DNA of 64,000 nucleotides from a virus: IMG/VR virus record IMGVR_UViG_3300025655_000017. One strand, given 5' to 3'. Below are positions 4,306 to 62,341 of the stretch, piece by piece. The notes beneath the pieces are model-generated. The model saw only the letters and a list, made by a program, of their open reading frames with translations, had not been told where the DNA came from and did not search any database. How positions within the stretch are numbered: the first letter of the stretch is position 1; the number at the start of each line of letters is the position of its first letter. Both the position numbers and the translations under genes were made by a program.

Positions 4306-6555
4306 ATGAAAAATTTATTATTATCATTGTTGTGTATTTTATTTTCTGTTAGTTTGTTTTCACAGAATTTATTTACAAAAATACCAACAGTCAAAGTACT
4401 TGATTTAACAAAGTACGAAGTTTTAGCTATAAATAATAGTGTTTTAGATCAGATTAAGGAACAATCTAAAGATGATTTAGCAATGGTTATCCCATTTGAT
4501 AATTACTATTTAGATTTAATTCTTACTAAAGACGACATTGAATTACCAATGATAAAAACTTCTTCTGGTAAGTCAGTGTTAGTTGATGATTTACAGGCAT
4601 ATTCAGGTATTGTTGCAAATGATCCATTGTCGGCTGCAAATATTTATTTTCTGGATGGTGAAGTTATGGGGATTGTTACAAGAGGAGAAGAAAGAATTGT
4701 TCTTCAAAAACAGGATGCAAATTATATTGTTTTTGAAGATAAGAATGTTTTTAAAAATGAACCTTTTACTTGTGGCACCAACACTGATGGTATAACAGTT
4801 CAAAATTTAATAACAGAGTTTGCAGTAAGTGATGTATGTACAAAAGTATATCTTGAGGTTGATAATGATATTTTCAAGCAAAAAGGTAGTGTAGCCAATA
4901 CAGCTAAATATATTACAAGTTTGTTTGATCAAGTAAAACAACTTTATGCAAATGATGGCTTGAAAATTGCCATATCTGAAATGTTTATCTGGGATACTCC
5001 CAGCCCTTATGTTACAGGGGGTAGTGGTGAAATGTTGACACAATTTTATAATTATCGAACAGATTATAATGGTGACGTGGCACAATTACTTTCTTATAAA
5101 TCTAGTGGAGGTATTGCGTTTGTTGATGTTTTATGCAATACCAATAAAAAGGTAAAAACTTCTTTTTGTTCTATTCAATCTACATACTTAAATGTTCCAA
5201 CATATTCATGGTCAGTTATGGTTATGGCACACGAGTTAGGACATAATTTTGGATCACCCCATACACATGATTGTGCATGGAACGGAAATAATACAGCGAT
5301 AGATAATTGTGTTCAAACAAACTGTGCATCAAATGGCATTCCTTCAGCAGGTGGAACAATAATGAGTTATTGCCATTTAAACAGTGTAGGGATTAATTTT
5401 AGATTAGGTTTTGGTGAACAACCCTCTAACCTTATGAGAAGCCGTGTAGCCAGTGCTAATTGTTTAACCGTGTGTGATAACGGTGGAGGTGGCGATAATC
5501 CACCACAAGACACCTCTGGGCTTAATGAGTTAAGATTTACACTTAAATTAGATACTTATAGTCCAGAAATTTCATGGCAGTTAGTTGGTACAGATAAAAA
5601 GGTTTTCTACGAAGGAAAAAACTATAATAAAACACAGGCAAATCTTTATGTTTTAGATACTTTCTTTTTACCTAGTGGATGTTATTCTTTAATTGTTTTG
5701 GATTCATATGGTGATGGACTTTGCTGTAAGTATGGGAGTGGTTTTTATTCTCTGAAAAGCTTAGATGATAAAGTTTTAGCTTTTGGTAATGAATTTGGTA
5801 AAACTTCTGAGACAAGTTTTTGTCTTGAAGGGGCTAAAGAAGAATGTTTAATTAATTTTAATGAAAATAAGCTTTTTTCTTATGGTACTAACCAAGATGC
5901 AGGTACAGTTGAAATTATTGAAAATGGATATGGCATTATGTTGAAAGATAATGCTTGGAAAGCAATTGATTCAAAATATAACATGACAAATAACACTATG
6001 CTTAGTTTTGAATTTAAATCTAGCATAGAAGGAGAAATTCACGGTATTGGACTAGATGACAACGATATTATTTCATCTAATTTAACATTTAAAGTATTTG
6101 GTACACAAAATTGGGGTATTTTAAATTTTGATAATTATGTACTCAATCAAGAATATCGTTATTATGAAATTCCCATCGGGAAATATTATGTATTGAATGC
6201 TTCAAAATTGTTTTTTGTAGCTGATCAAGATGGTGGGACAAGAAATGGTAATTCATATTTCAAAAATGTCCGACTATACGAAGCGGGTGACTGCAATGTT
6301 GCTAACCCTACATCTAACATTGTAGAAAATAAAGTGGCAATAACAATTGATTCTAAAATTATGACTGTAAGTTTTTCTAATTTACAACATGATATTTTAT
6401 ATACAATCTTTGACGAAAAGAATTATATTACTGAAACAGGTGTTGTTAACAGTGAAAACTTTAAAGTTGATTTAAACGAATATCAACAAGGAGAATATAA
6501 GTTTGTTGTAACAAATTACGGTCTTGTCACAGAAAAGAATTTTACTATTGAGTAA
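4306..6555 (+). CDS. secreted M12B/reprolysin-like zinc metalloprotease with accessory beta-domains
   Basis: Signal peptide, propeptide Cys (FTCG), HELGHNFGSPH zinc motif, Met-turn TIMSY, degenerate T9SS-like C-terminus. Confidence 0.88.
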   Translation: MKNLLLSLLCILFSVSLFSQNLFTKIPTVKVLDLTKYEVLAINNSVLDQIKEQSKDDLAMVIPFDNYYLDLILTKDDIELPMIKTSSGKSVLVDDLQAYSGIVANDPLSAANIYFLDGEVMGIVTRGEERIVLQKQDANYIVFEDKNVFKNEPFTCGTNTDGITVQNLITEFAVSDVCTKVYLEVDNDIFKQKGSVANTAKYITSLFDQVKQLYANDGLKIAISEMFIWDTPSPYVTGGSGEMLTQFYNYRTDYNGDVAQLLSYKSSGGIAFVDVLCNTNKKVKTSFCSIQSTYLNVPTYSWSVMVMAHELGHNFGSPHTHDCAWNGNNTAIDNCVQTNCASNGIPSAGGTIMSYCHLNSVGINFRLGFGEQPSNLMRSRVASANCLTVCDNGGGGDNPPQDTSGLNELRFTLKLDTYSPEISWQLVGTDKKVFYEGKNYNKTQANLYVLDTFFLPSGCYSLIVLDSYGDGLCCKYGSGFYSLKSLDDKVLAFGNEFGKTSETSFCLEGAKEECLINFNENKLFSYGTNQDAGTVEIIENGYGIMLKDNAWKAIDSKYNMTNNTMLSFEFKSSIEGEIHGIGLDDNDIISSNLTFKVFGTQNWGILNFDNYVLNQEYRYYEIPIGKYYVLNASKLFFVADQDGGTRNGNSYFKNVRLYEAGDCNVANPTSNIVENKVAITIDSKIMTVSFSNLQHDILYTIFDEKNYITETGVVNSENFKVDLNEYQQGEYKFVVTNYGLVTEKNFTIE

Positions 6556-36406: not shown

Positions 36407-36991
36407 ATGGAACAAAGATACAAAAAACTTTCTAAATATGCAAGAGATAATGGGATTAATTATCGCACAGCATGGAATTATTTTAATAAAGGGCTAATCA
36501 ATGGAGCTTTTAAAAACGATATGGGAACAATTCTTGTTCCTGTTATTGAAAAAAAACCTGAATTAACTAATAATAAAGCAGCGGTATATGCTAGAGTTTC
36601 CTCTAATGATCGAAAGCAATCTTTGATTGAACAATTAGAACGACTTAATAATTATTCTGTTAATAGTGGTTATCAAGTCGTACATTCTGTAAAAGAAATT
36701 GGTAGCGGTATGAATGATAACCGACAGAAACTTTCTAAGTTACTTAATCAAGATGATTGGAATGTTTTAGTAGTAGAAAATAAAGATAGATTAACCAGAT
36801 TCGGTTTTAATTACTTAAAATTACTTTTAGAAAAACAAGGTAAAACCATAGAGGTAGTAAATCAAGCTGAGGATGATAAACAAGATTTAATGGCAGACTT
36901 AATCAGTGTTATTTACAGCTTCTCAGCAAGAATGTATGGATTAAGACGTAAAAAAAATAAAGAAGAAATAATAAATTTTTTAGAAAATTAG
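36407..36991 (+). CDS. tnpA: IS607 serine recombinase transposase
   Basis: N-terminal HTH, YARVSS..K..L..Q, EIGSG, ENKDRLTRFG. Confidence 0.92.
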   Translation: MEQRYKKLSKYARDNGINYRTAWNYFNKGLINGAFKNDMGTILVPVIEKKPELTNNKAAVYARVSSNDRKQSLIEQLERLNNYSVNSGYQVVHSVKEIGSGMNDNRQKLSKLLNQDDWNVLVVENKDRLTRFGFNYLKLLLEKQGKTIEVVNQAEDDKQDLMADLISVIYSFSARMYGLRRKKNKEEIINFLEN

Positions 36992-38214
36992 TGTATTTAG
37001 TCGAAAAACATATAGTCGGGCAAAGCCATAAATATTACGATGAATGTGATAAGTTATCATATTTATCCAAGAATTTATATAATGCCAGTCTGTATAAAAT
37101 CCGACAGCACTATAAGGAAACTAAAAAACATTTAAGCTATCCAGAAGTCTATCATAAAGTTAAAACTAGCGTTGACTATAAAGCACTACCTGCTAAAGTT
37201 AGCTGTCAAACCATTAAAAAGTTAGCTGAAAATTATAATTCTTTTTTTAAACTAGTAAAGGCTTTTAATGATAAGAAAATTGAAAACTTTCCATCAATTC
37301 CAAAATATAAAAAAGAAAAGTACGGTCAGCTAGAACGGTTTTTAGTAGTTTATCCAAAACAAGCTTTAACGCTTAGAACTTTTAAAAAAGAAGGCAAAAT
37401 ACAACTTAGTAAGACTAATATAAAGTTAACCACTAAAGTTAGTAATTGGAATGATATAAAAGAGGTAAGAATAGTACCAAGGAAAAAATACTATATAGTT
37501 GAAGTAGTATATTTTAAACTTGAAAAGGAGTTAAAGCCTGATAATGGAAACTATGCTTCAATAGATGTTGGAATTAATAACTTAATGACTGTCGCTTTTA
37601 ACAATAAAAGTATAAAGCCTTTAATTGTTAATGGTCGTCCTTTAAAGAGTTATAACCAGTATTTCAATAAGAAACTAGCAAGTTTTAAAAGTGAGTTAGA
37701 GGTTAAGAATAAAGTTAAAACTTCAAAAAGGATTTCTTTATTAAATCTAAAAAGAACTAATAAGATAAACGATTATTTGCATAAGGTTACGACCGAGTTA
37801 GCGAATCAAATAGAGCTTCAAGGTGTTTGCCGTGTAATTTACGGACGCAACAAAGAATGGAAGCAAGACGTTAATATAGGTAAGAAAAATAATCAGAATT
37901 TTGTCAGTATCCCGATGGATAAAATGCGAAGCATGTTGGAATATAAGTTAAAGCTTCGCGGTATTGAGATGGTTGAACAGGAAGAAGCTTATACATCAAA
38001 GTGTAGCTTTTTGGATTTGGAACCAATAAAAAAGCATGAAAAATACGCTGGTTATCGGAAGAGTCGTGGCATGTTTAAGAGCCGTGAGAAAGGCTTAATA
38101 AATGCCGATTTAAATGGAGCGTATAATATAATGCGAAAGGCAATCCCGAATGTTTATTCGGACGGGACAGAGGGCTACGGAGTTAGCCCAGTGGTGTTGA
38201 AGATAAAACGATAA
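36991..38214 (+). CDS. tnpB: TnpB RNA-guided nuclease
   Basis: IDVGINN, QEEAYTSKC, NADLNGAYNI RuvC motifs. Confidence 0.92.
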   Translation: MYLVEKHIVGQSHKYYDECDKLSYLSKNLYNASLYKIRQHYKETKKHLSYPEVYHKVKTSVDYKALPAKVSCQTIKKLAENYNSFFKLVKAFNDKKIENFPSIPKYKKEKYGQLERFLVVYPKQALTLRTFKKEGKIQLSKTNIKLTTKVSNWNDIKEVRIVPRKKYYIVEVVYFKLEKELKPDNGNYASIDVGINNLMTVAFNNKSIKPLIVNGRPLKSYNQYFNKKLASFKSELEVKNKVKTSKRISLLNLKRTNKINDYLHKVTTELANQIELQGVCRVIYGRNKEWKQDVNIGKKNNQNFVSIPMDKMRSMLEYKLKLRGIEMVEQEEAYTSKCSFLDLEPIKKHEKYAGYRKSRGMFKSREKGLINADLNGAYNIMRKAIPNVYSDGTEGYGVSPVVLKIKR

Positions 38215-38983: not shown

Positions 38984-39553
38984 ATGAAAAACTCAATAAA
39001 ATTATCAGAATTTGCTAAAAGGCAGAGTATTACTTATCGTACTGCTCAAAATTGGTACTATAATGGTAAAATACCTAATTCCTATAAAGTTAATAATCAT
39101 ATTTACATTGAAATAAATGAAATAGAAGAATTTATTAACCCTAAAATAGTAGTATACGCAAGAGTATCTTCTAACGATCAAAAAGATGATCTTAATAGGC
39201 AAATTGAAAGATTAAAATCTTATTGCGCTGCTAAAGGTTATATCATCTCTAAAGTTTATTCTGAAATTGCCAGTGGGTTAAACGATAATCGTAAACAGTT
39301 TAATGCTATGCTCAATGATAAAGATGTCAATAAAATAGTAGTAGTCTCTAAAGATAGACTCACTAGATTTGGGTTTAACTTTATTAAACTTTTAACCAAA
39401 AGACTAAACATTGAAATTGAAATTATTGATCAAACCGAAAAAGAAGAAAATTTAATAGAGGATTTTGTATCTATTATTACTTCTTTCTGCGCTAAAATTT
39501 ACGGTAAAAGAAGTGGTAAAAATAAAATTAAAGAAATAACTAATATCCTTTGA
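38984..39553 (+). CDS. tnpA: IS607 serine recombinase transposase
   Basis: YARVSS..QK.DL.RQ, EIASG, KDRLTRFG. Confidence 0.92.
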   Translation: MKNSIKLSEFAKRQSITYRTAQNWYYNGKIPNSYKVNNHIYIEINEIEEFINPKIVVYARVSSNDQKDDLNRQIERLKSYCAAKGYIISKVYSEIASGLNDNRKQFNAMLNDKDVNKIVVVSKDRLTRFGFNFIKLLTKRLNIEIEIIDQTEKEENLIEDFVSIITSFCAKIYGKRSGKNKIKEITNIL

Positions 39554-40758
39554 AGTTAACTGAAAAACATATAATCAAAGCTAATCATTCTTTCTTTAAA
39601 GAATGCGATGAACTATGTTTCAAAAGTAAAAACGTCTATAATAGCAGTCTTTATTATTTTAGACAAAATTTTATCCATAATAACGATTATAAAAACTATT
39701 ATGAAACTTATTACGAATTAAGAACTAGTGAAGCTTATCAAGCATTGCCTGATAAAGTTAGCAAACAAACACTTAGAATGCTTGAAGGAAATAAATCTGC
39801 TTTCATTAGAGCTATTAAAGATTTTACTAAAAATCCCTCTAAGTATAAAGGTCGCCCTAAACTTCCAAAATATAAACATAAAACAGAAGGTCGGTTTGTT
39901 TGTGCTTATGAAAGAGGTTCAATTAGTAAAAAAGTATGGATTAAAGAAGGAAAGATAGGATTATCTCAAACTAATATAAAAATTAATCCTTATAAAGCTA
40001 CATTTGATAATATCTGTCAAGTGAGAATAATCCCTAAAAAAGGTTATTTTATTATTGAACTTGTTTATGAAGTATTATTGAAAGATAGAGTATCAGATAA
40101 TAGAAAGTATGCAGCTATTGATTTAGGATTATCAAATTTATGCACAATAACTTTTAACGAAAAAGGCTGTCAACCGATAATCATTAACGGAAACGGATTA
40201 AAGAGCATTAATCAATTTTACAATAAGCGCAAAGCGGAATTACAAAGTAAACTTAAAAAAGAAAAAACAAGTAAACAATTAAGAAAAATAGCATTAAAGA
40301 GAAACAACAAAATTAACAATCAGATACACAAAATAAGTTCTTATATAGTGAACCAAATAGTTTCAAGGGGAGTAAGCAAATTAGTAATTGGTTATAACCC
40401 GGAATGGAAACAAGGCATAAATATAGGGAAGAAAAATAATCAGAATTTTGTTAATATACCGTTCAAAAAATTGACAGATCAACTTCAGTATAAGCTTGAT
40501 ATTAAAGGAGTAGAATTAATATTAAGAGAAGAGAGTTATACTTCAAAATGTAGTTTTTTGGATTTGGAGGATATAAAAAAGAAGGAAAAGTATTGTGGCT
40601 ACCGAAAGAGCAGAGGCATTTATAAGAGCTATGAATATGGTGTAATAAATGCTGACGTTAATGGCAGTTACAATATAATGAGAAAAGCATTCCCCGATAT
40701 TTTTATGGAGGGGATAGAGGGCATTGCCGTATGCCCAGTGCGCGTTAACGTCGCATAA
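39550..40758 (+). CDS. tnpB: TnpB RNA-guided nuclease
   Basis: IDLGLSN, REESYTSKC, NADVNGSYNI. Confidence 0.92.
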   Translation: MKLTEKHIIKANHSFFKECDELCFKSKNVYNSSLYYFRQNFIHNNDYKNYYETYYELRTSEAYQALPDKVSKQTLRMLEGNKSAFIRAIKDFTKNPSKYKGRPKLPKYKHKTEGRFVCAYERGSISKKVWIKEGKIGLSQTNIKINPYKATFDNICQVRIIPKKGYFIIELVYEVLLKDRVSDNRKYAAIDLGLSNLCTITFNEKGCQPIIINGNGLKSINQFYNKRKAELQSKLKKEKTSKQLRKIALKRNNKINNQIHKISSYIVNQIVSRGVSKLVIGYNPEWKQGINIGKKNNQNFVNIPFKKLTDQLQYKLDIKGVELILREESYTSKCSFLDLEDIKKKEKYCGYRKSRGIYKSYEYGVINADVNGSYNIMRKAFPDIFMEGIEGIAVCPVRVNVA

Positions 40759-51061: not shown

Positions 51062-52888
51062 TTATGTCATAAGGTCAATAATTGTATTTTTTTGCAACGT
51101 TTCATAGCGCAAATCAATATCGACCTTTTCTTCATTGATCAATTCACTTTCATCATAAATGATGTTGGCTCCTGCATCAATCAAAACTTGTTTCATAGAA
51201 ATTGGTTTTGACCACTGAGCAAACAGTGCATTTCGTGCTTGCTCAGATTTTCCACCCGGCATACTTACTGGGATATTACCAAAGTTTGCATCAAGAATAA
51301 TAAAAGAAATTCCATCGTTTTCAGGCAAAAACAAACCTACGATTGTACCTTTTCCTTTTGTTTCAGTTCGCACTTCAAACAAAAGATCATTAGGATCAAA
51401 CATGTGATTCTTTTTAACTGAAGAAGCTCGGCCTACTACAATCTTATAGCTGCTTTTTTTATCACCTGTGAAAACATTCAACATGGCTAATGTTGGTTCA
51501 CTTAAACCTTTACCTACGTGCAGTAGTTCAGTTGCTCCATTTGGAGCATCGGTAATATCACCACTGTAAGTCAAACTGCCACTATTATAAGTGGAATTCC
51601 AACCAACTTTCTTACCAAGACCAATTGCACTTAAGTCTAAATCTGTTCTACCATTTTCGGAGTTTTCCCAATAAACACCAGCAGCCATGTTACCATCTAC
51701 TGTAATTTTTGTTCCAGTCGGAACATTTCCAATAAACATTTTTTCTGTACTAGGTAAAGCATAATCAATATTTGTTGGATAAAGAATATTCTTACCTTTT
51801 ACATTCAATGATTCAATAAATGAATAGTAAACCTGCATAAAAGAACGTTCGTAGTGTTCTTTTGTATTATTGCCCTTAGTCACGTAACTTTTTCCATTAC
51901 GGATGCGGTAAAACATATCTTGTGGGTTATTCATGCGTGTATTTAAAGCGTACAAAAGACGGATTTTCCGAAAATTATTAGCTTTTTCCAAAGCTTTAGT
52001 CAGCTCTTCACCATGAAACTCATTAAGTGCAGTAACACTATTCAAAAAGTCAATAGACATAGGAACATGGTGTTCTTTAGACAATTTAGACAACTTATTG
52101 ATAATGCTAACATTATTTTTATTAGCTTTTTTAAATGCTAGGAATAATGGTTTATACCGATTGAAAATCCCAGCTAACTTAATAAGATTATACTGCTTAA
52201 TGTATTGTTCTACATCAATTTTCGAAGTAAGAATAGCTGCAATAATTGCAGGGTTCTTAATAAGAGTTGTGCTATCAGTTGCCTTGTAAACCAAATATCG
52301 AACGAATTCCATCGGATTCGATGGAAATACATTTTGGTCATCCATTACTCGAATAGCAGCTTCTTTATTTTTGATATTATCTACACTTGCAAACTTATAA
52401 TCCAAAGCATTCAAGATGTCAAAAACATCCTTAATTGTTTGTTCTTTCAGTGCAATTCCTGATTCAAATAAAGACACACATAGTTGCACTAGTTCGTCTT
52501 TTGAAACTCCACAGATCACACGAATAGGAACCTTGCTTAGTTCAGGTACTTCTAAAATTTCATTAGGAAGGTAAATATAGCCATTTTGAATACCCAGAGC
52601 ATCCATGCCATAAGTACTAAAATAATGCAATAACTGATGAACCAACAGTTCTTCTTCTGTGGAATCCATAACAGTTGACCATGACTTGTGGAAAGTGGCA
52701 TTAAGCTGATTTCCGTTCAACATTTCTTGATGGTAATATTCCATAATTTCTTTAGCACAATGAAGTGCAGAAGGATCAATAATATAACCAAAAGGTAAAG
52801 TCTGTGAAACAATAGTTTCACTCAAACTAGAAGATGTAGTTTTATCATTAAGTACTACATTAAAAAGATTCAAAGTTGTGTAAGTCAT
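51062..52888 (-). CDS. helical N-terminal region plus C-terminal TerD-like domain; putative divergent ROT/TROVE(Ro60)-TerD RNA-binding protein
   Basis: Q.LHYFSTYG, PSTEK.F.GN.P.G, W....DLDLSA..VGWN..YSGDITDAP.GATE. Confidence 0.65.
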   Translation of the reverse strand: MTYTTLNLFNVVLNDKTTSSSLSETIVSQTLPFGYIIDPSALHCAKEIMEYYHQEMLNGNQLNATFHKSWSTVMDSTEEELLVHQLLHYFSTYGMDALGIQNGYIYLPNEILEVPELSKVPIRVICGVSKDELVQLCVSLFESGIALKEQTIKDVFDILNALDYKFASVDNIKNKEAAIRVMDDQNVFPSNPMEFVRYLVYKATDSTTLIKNPAIIAAILTSKIDVEQYIKQYNLIKLAGIFNRYKPLFLAFKKANKNNVSIINKLSKLSKEHHVPMSIDFLNSVTALNEFHGEELTKALEKANNFRKIRLLYALNTRMNNPQDMFYRIRNGKSYVTKGNNTKEHYERSFMQVYYSFIESLNVKGKNILYPTNIDYALPSTEKMFIGNVPTGTKITVDGNMAAGVYWENSENGRTDLDLSAIGLGKKVGWNSTYNSGSLTYSGDITDAPNGATELLHVGKGLSEPTLAMLNVFTGDKKSSYKIVVGRASSVKKNHMFDPNDLLFEVRTETKGKGTIVGLFLPENDGISFIILDANFGNIPVSMPGGKSEQARNALFAQWSKPISMKQVLIDAGANIIYDESELINEEKVDIDLRYETLQKNTIIDLMT

Positions 52889-52914
52889 GATAGTTATTTT
52901 ATTGTGTTTAAAAT

Positions 52915-52970
52915 AAGAACGAATAGTATTTTTTTAGAAATAAATTTTTTAGGAACTATTTTTGTCCTTT
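52915..52970 (-). ncRNA. repeated RNA motif copy A
   Basis: AAGGAC-AAA-AATAGT-TCCT..AT-ACTATT-C-GTTCTT. Confidence 0.7.
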
Positions 52971-52981
52971 GTGTATTTTAA

Positions 52982-53032
52982 AAAAGCGAACAGTATGTAT
53001 CCAAGTTTTATATAGGAACTGTTTATGCCTTT
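52982..53032 (-). ncRNA. repeated RNA motif copy B
   Basis: AAAGGC-ATA-AACAGT-TCCT..AT-ACTGTT-C-GCTTTT. Confidence 0.7.
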
Positions 53033-53035
53033 GTG

Positions 53036-53149
53036 TGATGGGGGATGGATTCGAACCACCGACCTAGAGATTATATTTTAAAGGAAGTTTTTTTGATAAA
53101 TTCGAAAACTATTTGAGTTCTCCTGCTCTACCAACTGAGCTACCCCATC
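53036..53149 (-). ncRNA. tRNA-like RNA with a 48-nt anticodon-loop insertion carrying the permuted repeat motif
   Basis: GATGGGG/CCCCATC, GCTC-AGTTGGTA-GAGC, GGAGA/TCTCT, GGTGG-TTCGAAT-CCATC. Confidence 0.8.
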
Positions 53150-53154
53150 ATTTT

Positions 53155-53945
53155 TTAAAAAACTCCTGATTGATCAGAGTTGAGTGATAACATTTTTATC
53201 CGTTTCCAGATATTACAAACATCAAGTTAATTGATAGTTATCATAATCAATGAAATTACGGTTTTCATCAACCTACTACTAAATGAGTTATAAAGTACTT
53301 TTCTCGTTCACCATCCTTGCAAGGATTCACAATCTGCCGACTGTTAGGTTAGAACGAAAATTTTCCCTCAGCTTCAAACTTGCGAGTCATCGACTGCCAC
53401 TATATTTCAAATGGATAAGATTATTTTCCTCATTTTAGTGCTACTCACTTTCGCTTTTTATTTTCTGTTAAATAGAAAGTTTTTTTGATAAATTCACTGT
53501 GAAGGAAGCGGAGTAGCTTTCCACCTTGCTTGCTTTTGACAAGTTTAGGTCAAACTCCCTTCTGCTTTCGGCTGGCAACCTAATAACTTCTATGTTTTGT
53601 ATTCACGGTATTTCTACCAACAAACTTTAAACATAAATTGTATATGCAATTTTTTTCGCCAAAAAAATCTCACATATACTCATTGTTTTCCTTATTGCAT
53701 TTCTGCTCAACAAACCGTCGAAATTATCATAAACGATTCGTTATTAAATCTTCATTGTCCTTATCTTTCAATACGAACAAATACCCAATTTAATAATTCT
53801 CACAATGGCTTTCATATCAACTGTGCATAACACAGCGCAAAATTTAACTCTTGCTTTCATCAAGTTGCCCTGACTTATTGTTTATTGCTCATAGAGCAAA
53901 TGGAAAAGAAGCCCCCCCATTAATTCTTAATTAGTTCTTTAACTA
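53155..53945 (-). ncRNA. large (~790 nt) structured ncRNA, GOLLD/ROOL-class candidate
   Basis: No credible ORF, several GNRA-capped hairpins on the minus strand, tandem promoters upstream, adjacent to a tRNA-like gene. Confidence 0.6.
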
Positions 53946-53955
53946 ATTGATGTCA

Positions 53956-54112
53956 CAAAGATAAAAAACTTTTTTTAATAATGCAAGCTTTTTATCAGAA
54001 AAATAAAAAATATTTTTTCACCTTTTATTTTTCTTTTTAGTTGACAGTACAAATATAATAACTTTTTTTTAATAACGCAAGCTTTTCACTAGAAAAATAA
54101 AAAATATTTTTC
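53956..54112 (-). promoter_or_regulatory. tandem duplicated Bacteroidota-type promoters upstream of the large ncRNA
   Basis: TTGCA..TATCTTTG and TTGCG..TATATTTG within a ~60 bp imperfect direct repeat. Confidence 0.7.
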
Positions 54113-54316
54113 CGTTAAATATTCTTGTATCAACAAATCTAATCCTTCAAATACCCCTACTAGATTTTCAATCTGTTTTTCCTCATCAACGTTGGGCATT
54201 AAGTTGCATTGCAACATAATTTCACAATATCGACGCTGGTTATTGGTCAAACTAAAGTTGCCAACAGTATTTAAAAACTTGCAAAATCAATATACAAATC
54301 ACTCATGTTTTTTTGT

Positions 54317-54505
54317 TTAAAGGTAACCTTCATTTTCTTCATAATCATCGTCATCGTTTCGTGGATTTCTTCTCCAACTCTGATTTCTACGAAATGTTTC
54401 CTCAATGTCTGTTTCTTCATCATTTGTAAAATCATTGTCATAAAATATATGATGAAGCAACCCTAGAAGAAAAAATATGGCCAACATAATATAAATATAA
54501 TTCAT
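54317..54505 (-). CDS. small membrane-anchored acidic protein
   Basis: N-terminal hydrophobic helix. Confidence 0.55.
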   Translation of the reverse strand: MNYIYIMLAIFFLLGLLHHIFYDNDFTNDEETDIEETFRRNQSWRRNPRNDDDDYEENEGYL

Positions 54506-60100: not shown

Positions 60101-60266
60101 TTTTATCTTAATGTAATTAAACTTTTTTAATTACTATTTTTAAAAATTAAACAATGACAGTTTTGAACTGCTAAATAGCTTTTTTAATTAGCCATAGTTT
60201 TCATAATAACATGAAAAATTTATCTAGGGTAAAAAATACATGTATTATAACTTCCCATTGTTTAAA

Positions 60267-60319
60267 AAGACGAACGGTATTTTTCGTTTGGTTTTTTTTA
60301 TAGGAACCGTTTTTGTCTT
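60267..60319 (-). ncRNA. repeated RNA motif copy C
   Basis: AAGAC-AAA-AACGGT-TCCT..AT-ACCGTT-C-GTCTT just after TATCTTTG promoter. Confidence 0.7.
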
Positions 60320-60463
60320 ATTTTCTTAGTAACAAAGATAAAAATAAATATCTTATAAAACAAATTTTTTATCAATTATAAAAAAAAAAATTCTCCACTA
60401 ATATATTACCTCTTGAGCAAGATAACAACGGACTGTTATCACCACCTTTAAAGAAGCTTAAGA

Positions 60464-62224: not shown

Positions 62225-62267
62225 AATTTTTTTTCATTTATCCTAATGTTTCTAAAAAAAATATTAG

Positions 62268-62341
62268 TTCCGTGAACAGGATTTGAACCTGTGATCTTCG
62301 GGATCGCGCCCGACGAGATAGACCAACTTCTCCACCACGGT
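62268..62341 (-). ncRNA. initiator-tRNA-like RNA with 6-nt non-CAT anticodon loop
   Basis: 1:72 mismatch, TCGGG-CGCGAT-CCCGA, ACAGG-TTCAAAT-CCTGT. Confidence 0.7.

Follow-up and report, generated by a model that had tools for sequence, protein, structure and literature searches.

The window, by which we mean the whole stretch of 64,000 nucleotides that was analysed, belongs to a 132.8-kb IMG/VR virus record that is judged 42% complete. Its G+C content is 26–32%, and its gene content includes tRNA genes (10 Rfam tRNA matches within the window), a Dda-like helicase and TnpB genes. The two TnpB-type genes, which combine OrfB_IS605 with a Cas12f1-like TNB domain, are separated by 1.3 kb on the plus strand (36991–38214 and 39550–40758), and at 62267–62341 on the minus strand there is a tRNA call by ARAGORN that has an undetermined type and a two-base "anticodon" (cg) and that scores 44 bits with the Rfam tRNA model. 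On its minus strand the window has a noncoding gap, bounded by a small ORF that ends at 54317 and by a tRNA-like gene at 53149. Judged from its sequence, the gap holds a real RNA gene that is a distant new member of the known phage RNA family GOLLD, preceded by two tandem promoter motifs and followed by the tRNA-like gene, a pair of hairpin motifs and a gene of 608 amino acids with a TerD-like domain (Table 1).

A preliminary description of this DNA had reported that the region contains no credible ORF, and this is borne out on the minus strand (53163–53950), also when TAG and TGA are read through. Over 53155–54112 the longest table-11 ORFs are 31–77 aa. Coding under recoded stops was considered and rejected, since the best minus-strand frame, obtained with TAG and TGA read through and with no start needed, has 100 aa and requires 5 read-through stops. 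Searching the RNA by blastn against 50,697 phage records (GenBank phages) gave no match, and a search of viral contigs with three single proteins of the phage turned up no close kin.

Table 1. Features of the RNA locus and of its downstream neighbors, in window coordinates
Feature	Position	Strand	Remarks and basis
Distal promoter unit P1	54025–54111	-	A/T-rich upstream block; TTG 54080–54078; TATATTTG (-7 box) 54057–54050
Proximal promoter unit P2	53931–54017	-	78% identical copy; TTG 53986–53984; TATCTTTG (-7 box) 53963–53956
5′ half of the RNA, ~390 nt, lineage-specific "variable 5′ region"	53563–53952	-	Fold z -5.06
First hairpin of the Rfam GOLLD model	53501–53562	-	Conserved A-rich loop UCAAAAG 53539–53533; RF02032 alignment
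Variable linker (53500–53458) ending in invariant AAAGCGAAAGU (53457–53447)	53447–53500	-	Holds 33-nt copy 53463–53495
GOLLD 3′-domain core	53163–53446	-	RF02032 alignment and covariation
Run of six U right after the terminal hairpin	53157–53162	-	Possible leaky terminator or 3′ end; sequence reading
tRNA-like gene, 114 nt	53036–53149	-	Rfam tRNA 54.5 bits; 48-nt insert in anticodon loop
Two tandem hairpin motifs	52905–53025	-	6-bp stems with compensatory differences; a T-rich run behind each
608-aa gene, TerD-like C-terminal domain	51062–52888	-	Over 2000 homologues

The 3′ half of the RNA and the GOLLD family

The preliminary description had proposed either a GOLLD-class RNA or a new giant RNA, to be checked by cmscan with the GOLLD, ROOL and OLE models. 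The GOLLD model (RF02032) aligns to 53163–53562 on the minus strand over its whole length (model positions 1–416) with 72 bits and an E-value of 2.7e-18 under E-value reporting, and the ROOL and OLE models have no match up to E 10 in 52800–54400. When RF02032 is run over the full 133-kb record, the same site is found at E 5e-20 and the runner-up site reaches only 11 bits, so that the A/T richness or base composition of this DNA fails to explain the match. The Rfam gathering score for GOLLD is 150 bits, which the window RNA with its 72 bits does not reach, and at gathering thresholds only tRNAs are found. In the methods of the recent structural work an RNA is counted as GOLLD at a cmsearch E-value below 1e-5 (PMC12286853), and the value of the window RNA lies below this limit.

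The single-stranded signatures of GOLLD are kept in the window RNA, namely the UCAAAAG loop, AAAGCGAAAGU, and the hairpins capped by CGCAAG and GCAAG. The long-range helix of the model, which here joins 53439–53429 with 53287–53278 and contains one bulged A, is kept with a non-consensus sequence and is thus itself a compensatory change. Besides this helix and the CGCAAG and GCAAG loops, the 3′ core comprises a GAAA hairpin at 53210–53199 and a terminal hairpin at 53180–53162. The usual setting of GOLLD is also present, as the locus lies in a virus record of IMG/VR with a tRNA-like gene 13 nt downstream. Of the two options raised earlier, the GOLLD-class assignment is supported by the full-length cmscan match (E 3e-18), and a new class is not, given this match to RF02032 and a fold that covaries among relatives, as described below.

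A divergent clade with a covarying fold

A structural DNA pattern derived from the RNA core retrieved 110 viral loci, from which iterative nhmmer starting with the window sequence picked approximately 20. RF02032 finds 17 full-length matches in those 20, of which 16 score 70–108 bits and the remaining one, at 307 bits, is canonical. A further 49 records of the pattern scan include 29 with canonical GOLLD at 155–332 bits, and the rest have no GOLLD. The GOLLD scores are therefore bimodal, with 70–108 bits in the clade, 155–332 bits for the canonical members and no score in between among those tested, and the window RNA belongs to a divergent clade that is excluded by the GOLLD threshold of Rfam. 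A tighter pattern returned further clade members from viral and metagenome contigs, none of which is a close relative; in all, approximately 35 members of the clade were collected.

The bimodal scores could also mean that the clade is a separate RNA family, related to GOLLD in the 3′ core only, with an architecture of its own and perhaps another assembly or function. The pair of hairpins near 53343–53310 is placed differently, and the 5′ domains cannot be aligned outside the clade, both of which would agree with such a family. We nevertheless regard it as very unlikely, because all matches span the whole model in the same order, because the signature loops and both long-range helices are common to canonical GOLLD, because both occur in the company of tRNAs, some of them within the linker, and because the E-value limit used in the field (PMC12286853) places these RNAs in GOLLD.

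For the analysis of covariation 19 clade members were aligned with MAFFT, the alignment being left unrefined, and a structure was derived by RNAalifold. It consists of 76 pairs in 13 helices, and compensatory double changes are seen in 63 of these pairs. In the real structure 93.3% of the cells are paired, as against 70.6% in column shuffles and 34–44% when the 3′ partner is slid by 1–3 columns, and not one of 500 shuffles reached any of the covariation measures. The covariation among homologues by whose absence the preliminary description had proposed to judge its RNA is hence present. Helices 1–3 of the clade alignment, which make up the first GOLLD hairpin, are 94–100% paired and carry compensatory changes in 16 of 21 pairs. 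A second structure, predicted from 14 closer relatives with the window left out, adds a helix that closes the linker and in which 6 of 9 pairs covary in the clade. In the window this helix joins GCUACUC (53517–53511) with GAGUAGC (53446–53440), with 9 of 9 positions paired, and in the canonical GOLLD of locus L083 the matching bases are complementary as well.

The earlier claim that the RNA is structured agrees with its folding energy. Over 53952–53163 (790 nt) the energy is -193.7 kcal/mol, compared with -164 for shuffled sequences (z -4.25), and the 5′ 390 nt folded alone reach z -5.06. Three GNRA-capped hairpins that had been read from the minus strand are all found as described: UCUG-GAAA-CGGA at 53210–53199, GCA-GAAA-UGC at 53706–53697 and UCAGG-GCAA-CUUGA at 53873–53860.

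Since the score of the window RNA is less than half the gathering score and among the lowest in the clade, we have to consider that it might be a decaying or functionless GOLLD copy which no longer folds or assembles, the low score then being the outcome of erosion. The 72 bits are near the bottom of the 70–108 bits of the clade; the window sequence makes 60 of the 76 consensus pairs in the unrefined 19-sequence MAFFT alignment and leaves 16 unformed; and the 33-nt segment in the linker looks recently duplicated. Several of the seemingly broken pairs are, however, alignment offsets, as the hairpins at 53260–53190 are perfect in the raw window sequence. Moreover, every helix predicted from the closer clade with the window left out can form in the 3′ half of the window RNA, two intact and strong-looking promoters are retained, and the fold z-scores lie between -4 and -5. 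Decay is on these grounds an improbable account of the locus.

The lineage-specific 5′ half

The 5′ half of the RNA begins with an 8-bp terminal hairpin (53948–53929), and two of the GNRA-capped hairpins listed above (53873–53860 and 53706–53697) lie within it. Approximately 115 nt adjoining the 3′ half can be aligned with the clade relatives. Farther upstream the resemblances are collinear and were seen by eye: a first hairpin whose loop is GCUUC, a GNRA hairpin with an A-rich run behind it that ends in AAAG, and a GAAA-capped hairpin. Homology models for this half were built without the window sequence. A covariance model of the first 120 nt of the clade found no match across the whole window, and the same model gave a weak hit of 14.9 bits (E 0.004), at the right place and in the right order, in a filter-free search of 501 nt. 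The middle part of the clade 5′ region, again as a covariance model, had no match in the window, nor did a profile HMM of the whole clade 5′ domain, with or without filters.

As MAFFT placed the 5′ half of the window RNA inconsistently between two alignments, we make no base-pair claims for it. Given the weak or negative results of the independent tests, this half is best described as structured and of the expected size and position, and as not demonstrably homologous to that of the relatives. GOLLD is known to possess a structured 5′ region which is less conserved than the 3′ region (PMC12286853), and the structured, unalignable 5′ half of the window RNA fits this known variable region.

Promoter motifs, predicted transcript ends and probable transcription unit

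Upstream of the RNA an 87-nt unit is duplicated, as the preliminary description had noted; the two copies (53931–54017 and 54025–54111) are 78% identical and 94 nt apart, and each contains TTG-N20-TAnnTTTG, at 53956–53986 and 54050–54080. We take this motif to be the sigma-A promoter pattern of Bacteroidota, in line with the published consensus and its -33 and -7 boxes. It occurs 20 times in the window, compared with 2.7 +/- 1.6 times in dinucleotide shuffles (an approximately 7-fold enrichment), and its copies are on the plus strand up to ~16 kb and nearly all on the minus strand past 28 kb, matching the strands of the genes. From this enrichment and the agreement with gene strands it follows that both promoters of the RNA are the ordinary promoter of the phage, set in tandem. 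Hence the expression "rRNA-like tandem promoters" used earlier is right as to the tandem duplicate, and nothing in it is specifically rRNA-like. The named homologues of the 608-aa protein, Chryseobacterium and Bacteroidota MAGs among them, likewise agree with a host of Bacteroidota type; for the GOLLD relatives, the density of the promoter motif gave no clear host assignment. A possible small ORF (54089–54316, minus strand; 53 aa from TTG, with an internal ATG) overlaps the A/T-rich upstream block of P1.

Reading from the motifs, transcription would start near 54044 from P1 and near 53950 from P2, and the tandem arrangement suggests high expression of the RNA. The shorter product, starting at the proximal promoter, would be ~790 nt in length with both ends predicted, and the length given in the preliminary description is right when counted in this way. 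The 3′ end of the RNA is uncertain because a terminator scan called no intrinsic terminator there, and this includes the terminal hairpin with its six U. On the strand of the 608-aa gene there is no promoter motif between 52889 and 53955, the nearest one upstream being P2. This makes it probable that a single transcription unit comprises the GOLLD RNA, the tRNA-like RNA, both hairpin motifs and the 608-aa gene, and that the gene is transcribed by read-through from GOLLD. As an alternative to this single unit, the terminal hairpin and six U (53180–53157) may stop most polymerases.

The neighboring tRNA-like RNA and TerD-like gene

The tRNA-like gene starts 13 nt after the end of the RNA and has normal acceptor, D and T arms; ARAGORN makes no call for it. 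A third copy of the hairpin motif is located at ~60265–60363 on the minus strand, where it has a TTG-N20-TAnnTTTG promoter and a T-run of its own and looks like a small stand-alone RNA gene. The 608-aa protein has no Pfam family and no sequence match in the PDB. Its AlphaFold model (pLDDT 81) shows a C-terminal TerD-like beta-sandwich, which Foldseek relates with probability 1.0 to 3ibz, 2kxt and 2qz7, preceded by a helical N-terminal part of ~360 aa for which no clear match was obtained. Homologues of the protein are also present in phage contigs, and nhmmer with 52889–53160 finds matches in the 300 nt directly upstream of the gene homologues in approximately 30 of 80 viral loci. Those ~30 loci keep the tRNA body and the GUUCCUAUAAAA element within the insert. 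Examples can be seen at loci L004, L013, L021, L030, L044 and L047 (~4700–5000), with a tRNA-like RNA and 1–2 hairpin motifs that share GUUCCUAUAAAA.

The tRNA-like RNA, the hairpin motifs and the 608-aa gene together look like a conserved RNA-protein module that is independent of GOLLD. Among 50 searched records with 608-aa homologues GOLLD was found in 2, where it lies more than 100 kb from the gene, and neither the 608-aa gene nor the module was found in the flanking DNA of any of the 153 GOLLD-pattern loci that were examined. It had been stated earlier that the RNA runs directly into the tRNA-like RNA, the motif copies and the TerD-like gene, possibly within the same RNP system. The arrangement itself was found, with its gap of 13 nt, both motifs and the gene. 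The shared RNP system is unsupported, as the module and GOLLD do not travel together: the module is conserved alone, 0 of 153 GOLLD loci carry it, and in the 2 of 50 records with both the two are non-adjacent.

This distribution also bears on the idea that the RNA acts in cis, as a long structured leader or regulatory element for the operon that follows it, and not in trans. The stretch free of promoter motifs between the RNA and the 608-aa gene, and with it the probable single transcription unit, would suit a leader, and so would a weak T-box-like match (RF00230) at 53499–53701 with 26 bits and E 0.002. This match was rejected, as it is far below the gathering score of 93, is poorly aligned and coincides in part with the GOLLD match. 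The tRNA-like RNA and the motifs accompany homologues of the 608-aa gene where GOLLD is absent, and other GOLLD loci exist without the 608-aa gene, so that we find a leader hardly credible.

One sequence is shared by the RNA and the module at this locus. Positions 53071–53103 of the insert in the tRNA-like gene recur in the GOLLD linker at 53463–53495, over 33 nt and with 82% identity, and within the window an exact 19-mer of this motif occurs at these two sites only. A search of viral contigs for its exact 28-mer gave no match. A similarity between the linker and the downstream DNA is seen at the window locus alone among 143 GOLLD-pattern loci, GUUCCUAUAAAA occurs in other GOLLD linkers at chance level only, and the stem of the linker copy is degenerate. 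With the module absent from the other GOLLD loci examined and the motif not enriched in their linkers, both the juxtaposition and the copy in the linker appear to have arisen locally, in this phage, and we consider a functional link between GOLLD and the module improbable. It can still be imagined that GOLLD has been joined with the module in one unit and that the linker docks the protein or RNA of the module inside a cage, for which we see only a slim chance. If true, the protein or RNA so docked would be the first cargo to be identified for a GOLLD cage. The linker copy, together with the probable co-transcription, at least provides a cargo idea that is cheap to test, though by the comparative data the copy is peculiar to this phage.

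tRNAs at the loci of GOLLD relatives

Many of the GOLLD relatives are flanked by tRNAs, and several sit directly behind a tRNA gene, and unlike these the window RNA has its own tandem pair of Bacteroidota-type promoters. In two relatives tRNA sequence lies in the linker. The linker of L090 (10960–11045, plus strand) holds an ordinary tRNA, with an Rfam tRNA match at 10969–11041, and that of L088 (4600–4700, minus strand) contains a T-arm and a 3′ acceptor strand with CCA ahead of the 5′ acceptor strand, i.e., a back-to-front tRNA-like piece. Genes for tRNA-like RNAs of 121–125 nt begin within ~20 nt after GOLLD in L124 (5916–6040), L118 (10358–10481) and L090 (11390–11510). They have an insert of ~50 nt in the region of the anticodon arm, with a UUCG-capped hairpin, which is unrelated to the insert in the window. 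Phage tmRNA genes, with Rfam matches above the gathering score, are located a few kb from GOLLD in L124 (3318–3772) and L090 (8016–8390). With tRNAs around and inside the GOLLD loci of the relatives, the tRNA connection stays the best lead on function.

Proposed working of the RNA and its relation to known cages

In the GOLLD family the cage is held by conserved bridges between the chains, and transcript levels rise during phage lysis. GOLLD was described by the Breaker laboratory (cited in PMC12286853), and the cryo-EM structure of GOLLD env-38 (Nature 2025) showed a protein-free closed cage, a 14-mer of D7 symmetry whose rings are built from the 3′ domains and whose caps are built from the 5′ domains, with the linker on the inside (PMC12286853). 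In the scenario that we propose for the window RNA, transcripts would be made from the two standard phage promoter copies. The 3′ half would fold as a GOLLD 3′ domain, with the UCAAAAG hairpin, a variable linker closed by a long-range helix and a core of multiple hairpins, and the 5′ half would be a structured domain of the usual size that is specific to the lineage. The RNA would then, as its homology with env-38 suggests, assemble without protein into a closed multimeric cage. Assembly like that of env-38 is the most likely outcome, extrapolated as it is from one solved canonical member. We assign a probability of roughly 0.87 to the reading as a whole, i.e., that the locus is a stand-alone GOLLD-family RNA gene of a large low-GC phage with a Bacteroidota-type host, that it has the 3′-domain fold and a lineage-specific 5′ domain, and that a cage is likely.

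The features shared with GOLLD are the predicted length of ~800 nt, the occurrence in a phage beside tRNA genes, the full-length 3′-domain match, the UCAAAAG loop, the helix-closed variable linker, the long-range helix, the order of hairpins in the 3′ core, and, as regards size and position, a divergent structured 5′ half of ~400 nt. Canonical GOLLD differs in score, since the window RNA stands at 72 bits against the gathering score of 150 and falls in a sub-threshold clade, and a cage is attributed to the window RNA by analogy. A further difference from other GOLLD RNAs is that its linker carries a copy of a motif of the neighboring RNA. Some GOLLD RNAs carry a tRNA in the linker (PMC12286853), and the window RNA resembles these (L090, and L088 with its tRNA piece) in that tRNA-related sequence is tied to the linker in what would be the cage interior. 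It departs from them in having no tRNA there, only the 33-nt copy of the insert in the anticodon loop of the tRNA-like RNA. ROOL RNA forms an octameric cage and is unrelated to GOLLD in sequence and architecture (PMC12286853). Like ROOL, the window RNA is large and ornate, belongs to a phage, lies near tRNA genes and has an internal linker that is disordered, and unlike ROOL it has no match to the ROOL model up to E 10. As for the role of GOLLD, none is given in the literature, and our guess is a scaffold or container of the lytic phase that is linked to tRNA biology.

Significance for the GOLLD family

Few natural RNAs are known to form a closed cage without protein, and GOLLD, which is one of them, gains with this locus a member that belongs to a giant phage of Bacteroidota-type hosts. 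Since a whole clade of phage GOLLD RNAs lies below the Rfam threshold, annotation pipelines miss its members, and a model specific to the clade would recover such sub-threshold relatives. The very divergent sequences of the clade, in turn, let the conserved and the variable contacts of the cage be tested.
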